A DNA stretch of 64,000 nucleotides from a virus (IMGVR_UViG_3300026035_000001:1634-65633), one strand, 5' to 3'; counted from the stretch's first letter, positions 1 to 4,618 are shown. Numbers and translations: made by a program. Notes: generated by a model from the letters alone, not told the origin.

Positions 1-55
1 AGGCAGGCGCCTGATGAGCGTCTATGAGGGTGTTCGATTCACTCAGGGACTACCA
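1..55 (+). tRNA. tRNA-Ile(GAT), 5'-truncated by window edge
   Basis: Anticodon arm GGCGC-CT GAT GA-GCGTC (6-22), T arm GGGTG-TTCGATT-CACTC, 3' AGGGACT-A-CCA ending at 55. Confidence 0.85.
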
Positions 56-69
56 TTCGGAGAAAGCCA

Positions 70-273
70 ATGCCGGTCGCTGTCGAGGTGTTGATGGAGG
101 AGGCTCGGCGCGAGCGCTGGCGTGCGCAGGACGCGATCCCGATCAGCTGCGGGTGCGTATTCTGCGACATCGGCATCGAGCCGGTGCGGCTGCGCCGCAA
201 TTGGGTGCACCACATCCGCGGCTCCGGCCGGCTGATTCGCTGCAACTTCAAGAACCTGAAACCGGGCGTCTGA
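70..273 (+). CDS. small Cys/His-rich hypothetical protein inside tRNA array
   Basis: GGAG SD upstream; 67 aa with CxCxxC and HH..C; fills the spacer between two tRNAs. Confidence 0.6.
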   Translation: MPVAVEVLMEEARRERWRAQDAIPISCGCVFCDIGIEPVRLRRNWVHHIRGSGRLIRCNFKNLKPGV

Positions 274-277
274 TCAC

Positions 278-359
278 GGACCCCGAACGTAAAGCAGGAT
301 GGTCTTGCAAGGGACTTTTAACCCCTCCGTAAGTGGCTCGAAACCACCGGGGTTCGCCA
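278..359 (+). tRNA. tRNA-Lys(TTT), irregular
   Basis: Acceptor GGACCCC/GGGGTTC, G73, CCA; loop CT TTT AA; 9-nt linker before a 5-6 bp D stem; T loop CTCGAAA. Confidence 0.85.
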
Positions 360-362
360 TTC

Positions 363-437
363 GGATCGATAGTTCAGTGCCAGAACGGCGGCCTCTTAAC
401 CCGCGCGTCCGGGGTTGGATTCCCCGTCGATCCACCA
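363..437 (+). tRNA. tRNA-Lys(CTT)
   Basis: Acceptor GGATCGA/TCGATCC, A73, CCA; loop CT CTT AA; D loop AGTGCCA, T loop TTGGATT. Confidence 0.9.
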
Positions 438-442
438 ATTTC

Positions 443-518
443 GTGCCTGTACCCCAACGGTAGAGGGATCGCGTTGAGGACGCGCTCAGTGGGTGTTCGA
501 GTCACCCCAGGCACACCA
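443..518 (+). tRNA. tRNA-Leu(GAG) with short variable loop
   Basis: Acceptor GTGCCTG/CAGGCAC, A73, CCA; loop TT GAG GA; variable region only TCAGT. Confidence 0.85.
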
Positions 519-525
519 TTTTTTT

Positions 526-624
526 GGGTCTGAAACCGTAGACGGTCTAGAAGCGGGACCGAAGATCGAAGTGCCCTTAGCGGCCGGAAGATCGCGGATG
601 TGGGATCGTCGCCCACCTGACCTA
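526..624 (+). ncRNA. tRNA-shaped RNA without a canonical anticodon loop
   Basis: Acceptor-like GGGTCTG/CTGACCT (one U.U), T arm GTGGG-ATCGTCG-CCCAC, V-arm-like GCGGCC-GGAA-GATCGC; no 7-nt anticodon loop, no encoded CCA. Confidence 0.6.
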
Positions 625-625
625 T

Positions 626-700
626 GGCCCTATAGCTCAACGGTGGAGCACCCCCCTGTCACGGGGAAGGTCCGGGGGTCAGCACCCCGTAGGGTCGCCA
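626..700 (+). tRNA. tRNA-Asp(GTC)
   Basis: Acceptor GGCCCTA/TAGGGTC, G73, CCA; loop CT GTC AC; T loop GTCAGCA. Confidence 0.9.
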
Positions 701-705
701 ATCAT

Positions 706-751
706 GGAGGCGTACCGCATAGGCGGATAACGGCGCCAGCCGGCCTCCACA
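706..751 (+). ncRNA. Y-shaped mini RNA (three-way junction)
   Basis: Stem GGAGGC/GCCTCC encloses hairpins CCGC-ATAG-GCGG and CGGC-GCCA-GCCG; 3' tail ACA. Confidence 0.5.
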
Positions 752-754
752 CTT

Positions 755-829
755 CGGAGTATGGGTCAGTGGTTGATCGCTCGGTTTGGGGCCGAGACAA
801 GGCGGGTTCGATTCCTGCTGCTCCGACCA
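755..829 (+). tRNA. tRNA-Pro(TGG)
   Basis: CGGAGTA/TGCTCCG, A73, CCA; loop TT TGG GG. Confidence 0.95.
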
Positions 830-834
830 ATTTT

Positions 835-924
835 GGGCCTTAGCACAGGTGTGCGGCTCGGTTTTATAAACCGGGGCACCGGACGGGTGTAGACGGCTCG
901 GCTCGATACCGAGGAGGCCTACCA
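835..924 (+). tRNA. irregular tRNA with UAU anticodon (nominal Ile) and long variable arm
   Basis: GGGCCTT/GAGGCCT, A73, CCA 922-924; D arm GCAC-AGGT-GTGC; loop TT TAT AA; V stem GCACC/GGTGT; T loop CTCGATA. Confidence 0.8.
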
Positions 925-1271
925 TGAAAGTCATCGCTAAGTATTTGGCGATGGAGCAGCCGCCGCTCCTGCAGCTGTGGGTACATGACGCGCCGCACCG
1001 GCGCATGCACGTGAGGGTGATCCAGGAGTACCGGCGCGCGATCTTGGCGGCGTGCCAGAAGGCTGGGATCATCACGCCGATCGCCGATCCGATCGAGCTC
1101 GATGTGCTGTTCGTCAATCCGTCGTCGCCCGATCTCGGCAATCTTTATCTGGCGCTGGAGCAAGCACTGGATGCGAAGGCACTGCGGCCGATGCCGGGCG
1201 TGGTGGTCGACGATAGCCTGATCGAGGCCGTGAAGATGGCCAAGTATTGGAATCAGGCGAAGAAAAAATAG
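924..1271 (+). CDS. RusA-like protein with degenerate active site
   Basis: PIELDVLF...PDLGNLYLALEQAL...VVVDDSLI matches the RusA pattern (DLDNxxKxxxDAL...DDxxV); SD GAGGAGG 6 nt upstream. Confidence 0.75.
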   Translation: MKVIAKYLAMEQPPLLQLWVHDAPHRRMHVRVIQEYRRAILAACQKAGIITPIADPIELDVLFVNPSSPDLGNLYLALEQALDAKALRPMPGVVVDDSLIEAVKMAKYWNQAKKK

Positions 1272-1348
1272 GATCTCTTAGCTCAACTGGATCGAGCGCC
1301 GGCCTCCGAAGCCGGGAGATCGGCGTTCGAGTCGCCGGGAGATCGCCA
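1272..1348 (+). tRNA. tRNA-Arg(CCG)
   Basis: GATCTCT/GGAGATC, G73, CCA; loop CT CCG AA; A20 present. Confidence 0.95.
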
Positions 1349-1351
1349 AAT

Positions 1352-1439
1352 GGATGGTCCAGGTGCAATGGTGCGCCAGCGGTCTTGAAAACCGTGGCCC
1401 GGGCAACCGGTGGGGGTTCGATTCCTCGGCCATCCGCCA
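1352..1439 (+). tRNA. tRNA-Ser(TGA)
   Basis: GGATGGT/GCCATCC, G73, CCA; loop CT TGA AA; long V arm. Confidence 0.92.
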
Positions 1440-1440
1440 A

Positions 1441-1589
1441 GAAGGGCTGATGCCTCACGACTGCGCCGGATTCGTAGTCATACGTTTGGGTTTGGTATCA
1501 CGATTCAAAGCCTTCCCGGAGGGCCCCGATCAATTCTGTGCAGGCCGGAGGTACGCCGCGCACGCGAGAGAGTTCAAAGCCTCGCACCA
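1441..1589 (+). ncRNA. two irregular structured RNAs, the second ending in ACCA
   Basis: 1441-1515: stems GAAGG/CCTTC, TGATGCC/GGTATCA, GACTGC/GTAGTC. 1538-1589: hairpin GCGAG/CTCGC followed by A-CCA. Both contain TTCAAAGCCT. Confidence 0.4.
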
Positions 1590-1591
1590 AT

Positions 1592-1666
1592 TGCAGGTAA
1601 AGGTCGGGTGACCCGTTCGGTCTCATAAGCCGGAACAGCAGGATTCGAGTTCCTGGCCTGCAACCA
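1592..1666 (+). tRNA. tRNA(CAT), elongator Met or Ile2 type
   Basis: TGCAGGT/GCCTGCA, A73, CCA; loop CT CAT AA; lacks the initiator GGG/CCC; 4-nt D loop. Confidence 0.85.
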
Positions 1667-1671
1667 ATTTC

Positions 1672-1762
1672 GGGTGGCGCAAGTAAGGATCGGCGGTCCG
1701 ATCGCCGCGCTGTAAACGCGGTCCCTTTGGGCAGGATGTTCAACTCAGTCCGTCACCCACCA
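1672..1762 (+). tRNA. tRNA-Tyr(GTA), irregular
   Basis: GGGTGGC/GTCACCC, A73, CCA; loop CT GTA AA; 9-nt linker, D arm GATCGG-CGGT-CCGATC; bulged T stem. Confidence 0.85.
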
Positions 1763-1763
1763 T

Positions 1764-1837
1764 GCGGCCATAGCTCAATGGCAGAGTTCGACCTTGCCAA
1801 GGTCGAGACGTCGGATCGTAACCGACTGGCCGCTCCA
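1764..1837 (+). tRNA. tRNA-Gly(GCC)
   Basis: GCGGCCA/TGGCCGC, U73, CCA; loop TT GCC AA; T loop ATCGTAA. Confidence 0.93.
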
Positions 1838-1841
1838 ATTC

Positions 1842-2096
1842 AGTCCGCGCCCGGCGGTGGATGGCCGGCGGCGGCTCGCGCGATCGATACTGCGGGAAGT
1901 ACAACCGCGAAGGGTCGACGGGAATGCGCCGCGGCGCCAATCGAAACGGGATGCCATCTGCCCTCTGGGACGGCTCCTCGCGCGATGCAATACGGTAAGG
2001 GTTTGGCGTGCCCTCCTACTTCAACGAAGACCCGCAACCGCGGCAAATTAATGAAGAGGTGACCGTGAAGGCGGTCGAATAAAACGCCATCTATTC
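1842..2096 (+). ncRNA. ~255-nt putative structured RNA between tRNA-Gly and tRNA-Phe
   Basis: No convincing ORF; hairpins CCGGC/GCCGG, GCGG/CCGC, AGGG/CCCT, GACCG/CGGTC, GAATA/TATTC; long-range GGGTC(1912)/GACCC(2029); CTCGCGCGAT occurs twice. Confidence 0.45.
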
Positions 2097-2172
2097 GCCC
2101 TGTTAGCAAATCTGGTGATTGCACGCGGCTGAAGACCGCAGGAGGCCTGTTCGAATCAGGCGCAGGGCACCA
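2097..2172 (+). tRNA. tRNA-Phe(GAA)
   Basis: GCCCTGT/GCAGGGC, A73, CCA; loop CT GAA GA. Confidence 0.93.
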
Positions 2173-2176
2173 ATTC

Positions 2177-2248
2177 GGGGAAAGCGTTGGGACGCAGTGA
2201 CCCTTTGCACGGCTCACGTTCGGAGTTCAATTCTCCGTTTCTCCACCA
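2177..2248 (+). tRNA. tRNA-Ala(TGC), compact core
   Basis: GGGGAAA/TTTCTCC with G3.U70, A73, CCA; D arm GCGT-TGGG-ACGC directly after the acceptor; loop TT TGC AC; 3-nt V loop. Confidence 0.85.
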
Positions 2249-2256
2249 TCTTCTAT

Positions 2257-2333
2257 TCCGGTCGGGCCATCTTGGTGATGGCGGGCGGCTGTTAACCGCC
2301 ATGCGGCAGGTTCGAAACCTGCGACCGGAGCCA
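2257..2333 (+). tRNA. tRNA-Asn(GTT)
   Basis: TCCGGTC/GACCGGA, G73, CCA; loop CT GTT AA. Confidence 0.93.
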
Positions 2334-2334
2334 T

Positions 2335-2409
2335 GCTGCCGTCGTCTACTGGCTAGGATGCTGGGTTCTCAACCCGGTGAAGCGGGATCGATACCCGCCG
2401 GCAGTGCCA
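2335..2409 (+). tRNA. tRNA-Glu(CTC)
   Basis: GCTGCCG/CGGCAGT, G73, CCA; loop TT CTC AA; T loop ATCGATA. Confidence 0.92.
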
Positions 2410-2414
2410 TTTAC

Positions 2415-2490
2415 GGTCCCGTAGCACAATGGATAATGCGCCAGACTACGAATCTGGGAGGTCGGGGTTCGAATCCTCGCGGGATCGCCA
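2415..2490 (+). tRNA. tRNA-Arg(ACG)
   Basis: GGTCCCG/CGGGATC, G73, CCA; loop CT ACG AA; A20 present. Confidence 0.95.
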
Positions 2491-2491
2491 T

Positions 2492-2565
2492 CAGGATGAA
2501 AGATTGCGGAAGTCGGGCGGCCTCGGATGCTGCCAGTGGAGGTTCGACTCCTCCCATCCTGACCA
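2492..2565 (+). tRNA. tRNA-Pro(CGG) with A37
   Basis: CAGGATG/CATCCTG (C1-G72), A73, CCA; loop CT CGG AT; 6-bp anticodon stem, 3-nt V loop. Confidence 0.85.
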
Positions 2566-2569
2566 ACAT

Positions 2570-2639
2570 TGCGGTCCTCCAGGGGATAAGCCCGGCTCTG
2601 ACCCGGGCGACGTGGGTTCGAGTCCTACGGCCGCAGCCA
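2570..2639 (+). tRNA. tRNA-Gln(CTG), reduced D arm (70 nt)
   Basis: TGCGGTC/GGCCGCA (U1-A72), G73, CCA; loop CT CTG AC; D region only 13 nt. Confidence 0.85.
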
Positions 2640-2646
2640 ATCCTAT

Positions 2647-2721
2647 GACCGGATGCCAGAGCGGCGATGGGCGGGCCTGCAAAGCCCGGCAAGGGGCGTT
2701 CGACTCGCCCTCCGGTCTCCA
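2647..2721 (+). tRNA. tRNA-Cys(GCA)
   Basis: GACCGGA/TCCGGTC, U73, CCA; loop CT GCA AA. Confidence 0.93.
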
Positions 2722-2723
2722 AT

Positions 2724-2800
2724 GCCCCGGTAGCTCAGTGGTAGAGCGCGCGTCTTCTAAACGCGATCTGGCGGGTGTTCGAATCACCCTCGGGGCTCCA
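2724..2800 (+). tRNA. tRNA(TCT), nominal Arg, with U73 and no A20
   Basis: GCCCCGG/TCGGGGC, U73, CCA; loop CT TCT AA; D loop AGTGGTA; 7-nt V region. Confidence 0.85.
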
Positions 2801-2804
2801 ATTT

Positions 2805-2880
2805 GGCCACGTACCGGTCGGGCCTCCTAAGCTCGATACCGTAACTGGAGATGGGCGTTCGACTCGCCCCGTGGCCACCA
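2805..2880 (+). tRNA. D-armless tRNA(CCT), nominal Arg
   Basis: GGCCACG/CGTGGCC, A73, CCA; only TACCGGT between acceptor and anticodon stems; loop CT CCT AA; 17-nt variable region; canonical T arm. Confidence 0.75.
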
Positions 2881-2881
2881 T

Positions 2882-2969
2882 GGAAGGCTAACCCGGCGGG
2901 GCCGGGCGTCGATTGCTAACCGATCGGCGGCGACTATGCCGTGAGGATCGTGCCCTCAGCCTTCCGCCA
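2882..2969 (+). tRNA. tRNA-Ser(GCT)
   Basis: GGAAGGC/GCCTTCC, G73, CCA; loop TT GCT AA; long V arm; T loop ATCGTGC. Confidence 0.9.
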
Positions 2970-2974
2970 TTCAT

Positions 2975-3049
2975 GCGACCTTGGGTCATTGGTTGATCGC
3001 CGGCCTTCCAAGCCGTGCCAAGGGAGTTCGATTCTCCCAGGTCGCTCCA
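2975..3049 (+). tRNA. tRNA-Gly(TCC)
   Basis: GCGACCT/AGGTCGC, U73, CCA; loop CT TCC AA. Confidence 0.95.
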
Positions 3050-3050
3050 T

Positions 3051-3125
3051 GCTGCGTTCGTCTACTGGCTAGGATAGCGGTCCTTCAAACCGCGGGAAGG
3101 GGATCGAAACCCCTACGCAGCCCCA
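3051..3125 (+). tRNA. tRNA-Glu(TTC) with C33 and C73
   Basis: GCTGCGT/ACGCAGC, C73, CCA; loop CC TTC AA; D arm identical to that of tRNA-Glu(CTC). Confidence 0.85.
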
Positions 3126-3130
3126 AATTT

Positions 3131-3204
3131 GGGCGGTTCGTTTAACGGTAGGACGGCAGTTTTTGAGGCTGCCTATGTGGGTTCGAATCCTACACCGCCT
3201 GCCA
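3131..3204 (+). tRNA. tRNA-Gln(TTG)
   Basis: GGGCGGT/ACCGCCT, G73, CCA; loop TT TTG AG. Confidence 0.92.
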
Positions 3205-3205
3205 A

Positions 3206-3276
3206 CGCTCTCCCTCCGGCGAGGAAACGGCTTTCATACGGCTGTCAGGCGCGATCGACACGCGCGTGAGCGACCA
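3206..3276 (+). tRNA. tRNA(CAT), compact core
   Basis: CGCTCTC/GTGAGCG, A73, CCA; D arm CCTC-CGGC-GAGG with no connector; 6-bp anticodon stem, loop TT CAT AC; V loop CAG; T loop ATCGACA. Confidence 0.75.
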
Positions 3277-3281
3277 ATCAT

Positions 3282-3358
3282 GCTGGAGATGCTCGATGGC
3301 AACGGGCGGCCGGACTGTGAATCCGGAGTACTCGGTTCGATTCCGAGCTCCAGTACCA
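3282..3358 (+). tRNA. tRNA-His(GTG), alphaproteobacterial type (no G-1)
   Basis: GCTGGAG/CTCCAGT (G1.U72), A73, T at -1, CCA; loop CT GTG AA. Confidence 0.92.
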
Positions 3359-3363
3359 AAATT

Positions 3364-3435
3364 ATCGGTGGGCTCCGGGAGCCGGCAGGTCTCCAAAACT
3401 TCGCCGCGAGGGTTCGACACCTTCCACCGGTGCCA
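3364..3435 (+). tRNA. tRNA-Trp(CCA), compact core
   Basis: ATCGGTG/CACCGGT, G73, CCA; D arm GGCTC-CGG-GAGCC with no connector; loop CT CCA AA; extended, bulged anticodon stem. Confidence 0.8.
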
Positions 3436-3443
3436 ATATCAAG

Positions 3444-3476
3444 CCCGGTCCCTTTCCCAGGGGCCGGCCTTTTTTA
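3444..3476 (+). terminator. intrinsic terminator of tRNA array
   Basis: Stem CCGGTCCCT/AGGGGCCGG followed by CCTTTTTT. Confidence 0.85.
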
Positions 3477-3484
3477 TTGTGATG

Positions 3485-3679
3485 TCAATGCAAATCGCGG
3501 TCTTCCTTGGAGTACGGCCCCTTGGCCGATGGCGTCCTTTCGATGCGACAGCCGGACCCACACATGCGCCCGTTCGGCGTCTGGTCGAAGCGGCCCCCGC
3601 ATGTCTCACAAGTCTTATTGTGACGCGCCAACCCCATGGCGCGGCGAACCTTTGTTGGCGTCACGTTGTTGGCCATCAC
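3485..3679 (-). CDS. small Cys-rich hypothetical protein
   Basis: 64 aa, CxxC...CxxxC; TGATG coupling to the upstream gene. Confidence 0.55.
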   Translation of the reverse strand: MMANNVTPTKVRRAMGLARHNKTCETCGGRFDQTPNGRMCGSGCRIERTPSAKGPYSKEDRDLH

Positions 3680-3885
3680 AGTTCCTTTAACTGCTGATTA
3701 GTGACGCTCTGTCGCGTCACGTAGGCTTGCGCATAGGCAATTGCTGACCCGAGATTTCGCAACACCTCTTGGATGTCGCCGAACTCCGGTTCCGGATTGG
3801 TGGCGATCTCGTCAAAGAATTTTTCATCCTTCAGCCAGCGCCGATAAATCGCTTTGACTTTGCGGGCTTTCTGCGCTGGCGTCAT
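3676..3885 (-). CDS. hypothetical protein
   Basis: 69-aa ORF in a tightly packed operon. Confidence 0.65.
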   Translation of the reverse strand: MTPAQKARKVKAIYRRWLKDEKFFDEIATNPEPEFGDIQEVLRNLGSAIAYAQAYVTRQSVTNQQLKEL

Positions 3886-3895
3886 CGCTAACTAC

Positions 3896-4618
3896 CTACT
3901 TCGGAAATTGCCTGATCATCAGATCGTCCGGGATTGCAGTCTTTCCGGTCATCTGCTTCATGAAGAACGGAACCTCCCGCTCGGCGCATTCGTCGCGGAG
4001 CTCCCGCGCCCAGGCCGGCTCCATCATGCGGGCGCCGGGCCCGCTCTCTCCGCCGCAGATCAGCCAATCCGGGAGATGAGATTTTGGAAACTTGCGCGTG
4101 GTGAGCGGACCGAGCGCTGGTTCATAGGAGATAAACCGCACGATGGCGGGGAGCTCCAGCATGATCTCCCACCGGCGGTCGAAAGCGTCCTGGTCTTCGG
4201 TCGTGGTGCCGAGCCAGATATTGCCCGGGAACCAGAACGGATGCATCATCTTTTCGATGTTCTCCGGGCGCTTGGTCAAGAGCAGCCAATCAAGCTCTGG
4301 CGTATCCATGATCATATGGAACAGGTCGGCCCGCGCGCCGGCAGGGGCCTTGTTGTCGAACACGTCGGCAAGGCTGGCACAGAAGACGCGCGGGCGCCGG
4401 CCAGAGGCTTTGGCAGCCTTGGCCCATCGGTAGGGCTGGCGCCAGTTTGACGCACTGGTGCGCACGCGGGCGCCGTGAGGACCCCATTCGACGCGATGGT
4501 ATCGCTTGTCCATCAGGGTCTCCGCATAGCAAAGGTCGCAGCCGGCGGAGACCTTCTGGCAGCCGATCCAGGGGTTGAACGTATGATCGCACCATGCGAT
4601 TGCAGTTTTCTCGCCCAT
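3896..4618 (-). CDS. DUF5131 (phage Gp37/Gp68) family protein
   Basis: IAWCDHTFNPWIGCQKVSAGCDLCYAE, VFCASLADVFD, LLLTKRP, RFISYEPALG, WLICGGESG, FFMKQM; start at MGEKT by TGATG coupling. Confidence 0.9.
   Translation of the reverse strand: MGEKTAIAWCDHTFNPWIGCQKVSAGCDLCYAETLMDKRYHRVEWGPHGARVRTSASNWRQPYRWAKAAKASGRRPRVFCASLADVFDNKAPAGARADLFHMIMDTPELDWLLLTKRPENIEKMMHPFWFPGNIWLGTTTEDQDAFDRRWEIMLELPAIVRFISYEPALGPLTTRKFPKSHLPDWLICGGESGPGARMMEPAWARELRDECAEREVPFFMKQMTGKTAIPDDLMIRQFPK

Follow-up and report, generated by a model that had tools for sequence, protein, structure and literature searches.

Animal mitochondrial transcripts are reportedly punctuated by tRNAs, an arrangement attributed to the 1981 work of Ojala, Montoya and Attardi. 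Mitochondrial tRNA genes do not encode the CCA end, the mRNAs are leaderless and their stop codons are sometimes completed by polyadenylation. In Escherichia coli, the thrU-tyrU-glyT-thrT-tufB unit places tRNAs and an mRNA on one primary transcript, from which they are separated by RNases. Among phages, we consider the closest precedent for the locus described here to be segB of phage T4, which is located between tRNA genes and expressed from the precursor RNA of their cluster (Brok-Volchanskaya et al. 2008, PMC2330249). A hairpin is predicted to contain both the Shine-Dalgarno (SD) sequence and the AUG of segB, and maturation of the adjacent tRNA-Arg involves a cut at the segB stop codon (PMC2330249). 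Its authors propose that processing of the tRNA precursor restrains expression (PMC2330249; review PMC2988022), and late transcripts of T4 homing endonucleases free the ribosome-binding site (RBS) (PMC2988022). Our literature search returned no direct description of an SD located inside a tRNA, nor of tRNA punctuation in bacteria or phages.

The DNA analyzed here (the window, 64,000 nt) covers positions 1634-65633 of a virus record that is complete, measures 65.6 kb and carries direct terminal repeats. The phage comes from soil, its terminase shares approximately 40% identity with the terminases of phages that infect Pseudomonas, Sphingopyxis, Klebsiella and Rhizobium, and its relatives include what is probably a Bradyrhizobium prophage. 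ARAGORN predicts 24 tRNAs at window positions 363-3435 and six more just upstream of the window, which makes an array of about 30 tRNAs, all on one strand, beginning ahead of the window at genome position 865. Two small protein genes (70-273 and 924-1271) are embedded in this array, the first of them behind a tRNA-Ile(GAU) that occupies genome positions 1614-1688 and ends at window position 55 (Table 1). The sole convincing intrinsic terminator on the plus strand follows the last tRNA directly and marks the end of the array transcription unit, and a scan of positions 1-4200 for promoters of the sigma-70-like type detected none near the second gene. Given the start of the array at genome position 865, this single terminator and the absence of a sigma-70-like promoter, it seems likely that the array is cotranscribed as one unit with both protein genes. 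In the cultured-phage collection, we identified no DNA-level relative of the array beyond single tRNAs and no homolog of the 115-aa protein encoded by the second gene.

Table 1. Features of the tRNA array and of the tRNA/protein junction, in window coordinates.
Feature	Position	Strand	Remarks
Small protein gene, first in array	70-273	+	67 aa, CxxC motifs; GGAG in 14-nt spacer after tRNA-Ile(GAU)
tRNA-Pro(UGG)	755-829	+	ARAGORN; Rfam tRNA 47.5 bits; 5 nt upstream of UAU tRNA
tRNA(UAU)	835-924	+	ARAGORN tRNA-Ile(tat); 90 nt, long variable arm
SD-like GAGGAGG	911-917	+	T-stem 3' strand (911-913) and acceptor 3' strand (914-917)
Gene for predicted RusA-fold protein	924-1271	+	115 aa; ATG 924-926; TAG 1269-1271
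10-bp hairpin	931-954	+	begins 5 nt after start codon; window-specific
tRNA-Arg(CCG)	1272-1348	+	ARAGORN; Rfam tRNA 50.9 bits; first base directly after stop codon
Intrinsic terminator	3445-3476	+	9-bp stem, 7 GC pairs, T run; directly after last tRNA (3435)

The second of the embedded genes is flush with tRNAs on both sides, the flanking gaps being -1 nt at its 5' end and 0 nt at its 3' end. The A of its ATG is A76 of tRNA(UAU), that is, A924 of the CCA, and G1272 is base 1 of tRNA-Arg(CCG). In tRNA(UAU), the acceptor strand 835-841 pairs with 914-920 (GAGGCCT), the anticodon lies at 865-867 and the T arm at 897-913, and the 3' side is completed by the T-stem 3' strand (909-913, CCGAG), the discriminator A921 (A73) and the CCA (922-924). 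From these strand boundaries it follows that the GAGGAGG motif spans both the T stem and the acceptor strand; it ends 6 nt before the ATG and forms an anti-SD duplex of -11.8 kcal/mol. The ATG is the first start codon past an in-frame stop at 867-869. An earlier note on this DNA had placed the SD at 911-917, the A shared by CCA and start codon at 924, the end of the TAG at 1271 and the first base of tRNA-Arg at 1272, and all of these positions proved exact.

The ARAGORN drawing of tRNA(UAU) presents the features of a cloverleaf (7-bp acceptor, G53-C61, 7-nt anticodon loop, U33, purine 37 and N73-CCA), and its minimum-energy fold is that cloverleaf, at -39.4 kcal/mol. The 4-nt D loop and the C at position 54 make it atypical. 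It falls below threshold in Rfam, where the only model matched is tRNA-Sec, which yields 25.9 bits when the gathering score is 47, and several further ARAGORN tRNAs of the array likewise fail Rfam. Across five homologous UAU tRNAs, one in the window (835-924) and four at the same position in relatives (L013:2394-2485, L046:498-588, L053:1411-1501 and L068:594-687), none of the 25 predicted pairs is broken, and in 18 pairs both sides have changed. More generally, the acceptor of the related upstream tRNAs is fully paired (7/7) in 38 of 39 cases, spanning many different sequences, and 6/7 paired in the remaining one (L019). The persistence of paired acceptor stems across so many sequences, together with the covariation, argues that tRNA(UAU) is a real gene and predicts that it is functional. 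As a class, the UAU tRNAs combine a long variable arm, a 4-nt D loop and A73 with covariation in all stems, and most relatives carry a CAU tRNA of normal length at this position. In the UAU tRNA, the combination of a long arm with A73 appears Leu-like.

The product of the gene at 924-1271 has 225 homologs (E <=0.01), mostly of 113-116 residues, with identities of 57-87% among the 120 homologs listed; the first Met is invariant, and the N-terminus MK[VI]IAKY aligns in every junction form. Taken together, these results indicate that the gene is real and that it starts at 924. Single-sequence scans of Pfam (E up to 1) and PHROGs gave no match for the 115-aa protein, PF05866 (RusA) matched nowhere in the whole phage genome and a search of the PDB with the family sequence profile found no RusA sequence. 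The AlphaFold2 model (pLDDT 90), on the other hand, has as its best structural matches the E. coli RusA structures 1q8r and 2h8c (Foldseek probability 0.97), with VIA Z scores of 7.0-7.5 for 1q8r, 2h8c and 2h8e (rmsd of about 3.0 A over 90-92 residues) against 5.1 for the next unrelated structure. On the basis of this model, we designate the product a putative RusA-fold protein of uncertain activity. The catalytic residues of E. coli RusA are D70, D72 and D91, together with K76. With residue equivalence read from the motif, an alignment of 27 family sequences shows D70, N73 and D96-D97 to be invariant and a Leu at 76, while position 72 is Gly in 26 sequences (PDLGN) and Asp in one (P0083, PDCDN). 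The PDLGN...DD motif thus keeps the first and last acidic positions, with Gly at the presumed second catalytic Asp and Leu at the presumed Lys, and the family may be catalytically degenerate.

A set of 75 related loci was gathered from viral, metagenome and genome collections. Their general gene order is a tRNA (CAU or UAU), the RusA-fold gene and a tRNA-Arg (CCG or UCG). Among the 44 distinct related junctions with a tRNA within 25 nt of the start codon, the start shares its A with the CCA (position -1) in 21, abuts the CCA (position 0) in four, lies at +2 in one and follows 9-21 nt downstream in 18; none of the 44 places it at +1 or at +3 to +8. The overlap, for which the earlier note had recommended a check in homologs, hence belongs to a fused configuration (-1 or 0) that is found in 25 of 44 distinct junctions. 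GTG starts always directly abut the CCA. In the spaced junctions, the CCA is followed by an A/U-rich stretch, an SD (GGAGG or GGGGG), a spacer and the ATG, and the occurrence of an SD within the spacer of nearly all of these relatives implies that the RusA-fold gene is normally SD-led.

The 3' side of the gene is similarly compact, with a gap of 0-4 nt between stop codon and tRNA-Arg in 33 of the 43 distinct loci with a scorable 3' end. In L013 (2827-2836) and L042 (1110-1119) the stop codon is formed by U8-A9-G10 of tRNA-Arg, and in L055 (512-518) it lies at tRNA-Arg positions 5-7. RNase P cleavage in these three loci would leave a non-stop message, and their translation would therefore have to use the uncut precursor. 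In one further locus (L001:3001-3417, on the same contig as L007) the ORF reads through the whole tRNA-Arg to reach 138 codons; a match to the family at its C-terminus requires a change of frame, and the likely cause is thus an indel of 1 nt, or else a misassembly, close to the end. The arrangement extends to a cultured organism, Bradyrhizobium sp. BR13661 (L073, with L076 listed alongside; NZ_JARXWB010000006.1, 203094-207435), where an array with the same gene and a GTG directly after the CCA adjoins ordinary host genes on a 360-kb contig and is probably a prophage in the chromosome. Junctions nearly identical to this one occur in L028, L036 and L074, and another of the loci (L072) belongs to an alphaproteobacterial metagenome-assembled genome. 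Other genes show comparable placements. Homologs of the CxxC gene (about 67 aa, with the motif RLRRxWVHH) are found in some 30 related loci, and in L019 (1754-1957) and L065 (253-450) they lack an SD and begin 2 nt past the CCA. In a similar vein, HNH-endonuclease-like genes (L001:1740-2129, L019:3752-4141 and L059:538-849) start 0-2 nt past the CCA without an SD, an arrangement that resembles that of the RusA-fold gene.

Within the last 20 nt, GGAGG is present in 9 of the 22 distinct upstream tRNAs of fused junctions and in none of the 13 of spaced junctions; when the other tRNAs of these arrays are examined, only 5 of 646 have it. An anti-SD duplex at least as stable as -8 kcal/mol can form at 56% of fused junctions, 44% of spaced junctions and 4% of the 3' ends of other tRNAs (Mann-Whitney p = 2e-8, uncorrected for relatedness). 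The distance from SD to start codon is 6-7 nt, and G.U wobbles put G on the 3' strand while the pairs are kept (U7.G66 in the window, U5.G68 in the CAU tRNAs). Judged from these comparisons, the SD within the tRNA looks selected. In 11 of the 25 fused junctions the SD is weak or missing (-1.7 to -7.2 kcal/mol) and the ORF is still intact and conserved. Pairing fused state with SD in the tRNA across phylogenetically independent contrasts yields six pairs only and p of about 1, a comparison that has no power. The SD-bearing acceptors may perhaps have arisen in only 3-5 tRNA lineages and then spread by recombination.

Thermodynamic prediction supports the proposal of the earlier note that folding of the tRNA sequesters the SD. 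With the minimum-energy cloverleaf formed and 36 nt of the ORF attached, the probability that 911-917 is unpaired is predicted to be 0.02, and the AUG is free (0.78). The former value rises to 0.28 when 86 nt of the ORF are attached, the acceptor stem being predicted to open partly, and to 0.36 in an RNA that starts at the T arm and has lost the 5' half of the tRNA. A search for a conserved alternative pairing that would free the SD found none. A conserved hairpin after the start codon was also considered and rejected, the folding energy of positions +1 to +45 having a median of -8 kcal/mol in relatives against -15.2 kcal/mol in the window. The hairpin at 931-954 of the window would hinder 30S binding under either initiation model, on the precursor or on a leaderless message.

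On the protein tree, the three junction states (fused with SD, fused without SD and spaced) are interleaved, and no fewer than 23 changes of state are required. Different upstream tRNAs and junctions precede proteins that are the same or almost the same in sequence (for example L009 and L043, L026 and L029, L038 and L040), the differences involving T arms, acceptor stems and an ATG at -1 versus a GTG at 0. Such patterns suggest that recombination is frequent within the arrays, with breakpoints at the CCA/start junction, and the lability of the junction argues against an indispensable, finely tuned switch.

Given that this layout is kept in many related phages, the unprocessed tRNA precursor is the probable template from which the protein is translated. 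Specifically, we assign a probability of about 0.5 to a model in which translation led by the SD on the array precursor competes with folding and cutting of the tRNA. The RusA-fold gene would have no leader of its own, its RBS being written into the T-stem and acceptor 3' strands of tRNA(UAU), and initiation at 924 would occur on the precursor, either cotranscriptionally or while the acceptor stem is open. Folding of the tRNA would hide the SD, the 3'-end cut would destroy the start codon and RNase P cleavage at tRNA-Arg would end the message. With the SD hidden and the start codon open to destruction, translation and tRNA maturation would compete for the same RNA, a competition that would probably hold the RusA-fold protein at a low, transient level. 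We envisage the arrangement as the passive outcome of extreme compaction, made workable by selection, and not as a dedicated sensor. What favors translation of the precursor is the SD-led configuration wherever there is room for it, the enrichment of the SD in the tRNA and the stop codons that lie inside tRNA-Arg. Against it stand the weak or missing SD of about 11 of the 25 fused junctions, though the ORF is conserved in them, the burial of the SD in a cloverleaf of -39 kcal/mol, which may keep a 30S subunit from reaching it, and the lack of power of the phylogeny-aware test.

The conflict between 3' maturation and translation that the earlier note had pointed out holds as stated, a cut at the mature 3' end taking away the A of the AUG. 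Its further claim that translation and tRNA production are mutually exclusive can be sustained in part. The hidden SD, the removal of the start A and the stops that relatives carry inside tRNA-Arg are all in line with it, but strict exclusivity for each molecule does not follow, because one precursor could be translated first and processed later, and a cut after C75 with subsequent re-addition of A76 could yield both products.

The strict positioning of the start codon also counts against translation of the precursor. The start is almost always exactly at -1 or 0, and since SD spacing alone would also permit +1 to +3, this strictness better fits a 5' end defined by cleavage. In such a scheme, akin to that of mitochondria, excision of the flanking tRNAs would free a leaderless mRNA or one with a 2-nt leader: a cut after C75 would give 5'-AUG and one after A73 would give 5'-CCAUG, the host CCA-adding enzyme would restore A76 and cleavage by RNase P at tRNA-Arg would produce a 3' terminus just past the stop codon, so that tRNA and mRNA would both derive from one precursor. 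The junction census (21 starts at -1, four at 0), the GTG starts abutting the CCA, the short gaps to tRNA-Arg, the poor SD of about half the fused junctions and the HNH and CxxC genes that start 0-2 nt past the CCA without an SD are all consistent with this scheme. Its commonest form (-1), nevertheless, requires a cut inside the CCA, and we know of no activity that cuts there in CCA-encoding proteobacterial precursors. Searches of the phage for its own CCA-adding enzyme (PF01743) and RNase Z (TIGR02651) found neither. In favor of the scheme, RNase Z is encoded by the Bradyrhizobium genome that carries the related prophage; its location about 7 kb from the array was rejected as evidence, since it is a host gene, surrounded by efflux, TetR, IclR, DHDPS and PdxA genes, and not part of the prophage. 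The hosts, moreover, are Alphaproteobacteria, and Caulobacter has 385 leaderless mRNAs (PMC8459731). In Caulobacter, however, leaderless initiation drops by half with every nucleotide added at the 5' end and a GUG start works poorly (PMC8459731), and yet GUG forms are common here. Excision would also leave the enrichment of the SD inside the tRNA unexplained and would turn the relatives with a stop inside tRNA-Arg into sources of non-stop mRNAs. On balance, we consider this route, the main rival to translation of the precursor, unlikely.

It is also conceivable that the junction is simply inherited and spread by recombination, the gene being expressed from an unrecognized promoter inside the upstream tRNAs. 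A transcript that began there would lack the 5' strand of the acceptor, leaving the SD free, as the greater exposure predicted for an RNA starting at the T arm illustrates. The shuffling of junction types among nearly identical proteins (L009 and L043, L026 and L029) agrees with such neutrality, and promoter-dependent unmasking of an RBS has a precedent in T4 (PMC2988022). Set against this are the result of the promoter scan, within its sigma-70-like scope, the tRNA constraints that any promoter within a conserved tRNA would have to satisfy across many different sequences, and the bimodal distribution of gaps, which argues for selection on the junction; we judge such an origin improbable. We are similarly doubtful that a functional tRNA acts as a translational operator whose SD can be reached only briefly, during transcription and before the acceptor closes. 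Were this so, the rates at which the tRNA folds and is processed during infection would determine the output of RusA-fold protein, and phages would tune this output by moving between forms with the SD in the tRNA, without an SD and with a spacer, the SD-less form being leaderless after a cut inside the CCA and A76 being repaired by the host CCA-adding enzyme. Still less credible, and in our opinion very improbable, is the dedicated sensor or switch put forward in the earlier note, in which the tRNA would sense processing capacity (RNase P or E load), read out as RusA-fold protein. Sequestration of the SD in the tRNA, the unavoidable conflict of 3' maturation with the start codon and the retention of the SD inside the tRNA in several lineages speak for such a device. 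It is contradicted by the interchange of forms among nearly identical proteins, close relatives swapping to a spacer with SD or losing the SD in the course of those 23 or more changes, by the lack of a good SD in about half of the fused junctions, by the absence of a conserved alternative structure that frees the SD and by the restriction of the 931-954 hairpin to the window. Moreover, the RusA fold is not known to be linked to tRNA processing.

The tRNA arrays of phages are usually interpreted as a plain supply of tRNAs; here, and in dozens of uncultured relatives, they embed protein genes that have no leaders of their own. In several lineages the RBS lies inside a tRNA that still keeps all of its base pairs, and a single RNA segment would thus answer to two selective demands, tRNA structure and base pairing to 16S rRNA, which would make it a clear natural case of dual selection. 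Annotation software that does not allow a protein gene to overlap a tRNA will either overlook these genes or give them a wrong start. The presence of a related array, with its GTG directly after the CCA, in a cultured Bradyrhizobium genome makes the arrangement amenable to testing at the bench.

Compared with the systems outlined at the outset, the locus combines elements of several. As in the tufB unit, tRNAs and an mRNA would share one primary transcript, but tufB has a leader of its own, and its SD lies far past the last tRNA, which it does not overlap. As in RNA thermometers, translational riboswitches and hairpins of the T4 I-TevI type, the SD is paired in a stable helix and initiation would need unfolding, but the sequestering helix belongs here to a tRNA, which is itself a product, and our analysis identified no ligand, temperature response or conserved alternative fold of the kind that would mark such operators. 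The likeness to mitochondrial punctuation lies in a gene set flush between tRNAs, with its start at the 3' end of one and its stop at the 5' end of the next; unlike in mitochondria, the CCA is encoded and overlaps the AUG, and the SD lies inside the tRNA. With T4 segB, the locus shares a nuclease-type gene in a phage tRNA cluster, an SD predicted to be occluded and a tRNA-Arg at the stop codon. It departs from segB in that the occluding element is the upstream tRNA itself and not a separate hairpin of the 5' untranslated region, in that the AUG shares a base with the CCA, in that the product has a predicted RusA fold and is not a GIY-YIG homing endonuclease, and in that expression control is here a prediction from sequence. 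Should the favored translation from the array precursor apply, the locus would broaden the view put forward for T4 segB, in which processing of the tRNA precursor restricts the expression of embedded genes, and would provide a bacterial-virus counterpart to the tRNA punctuation of mitochondria.
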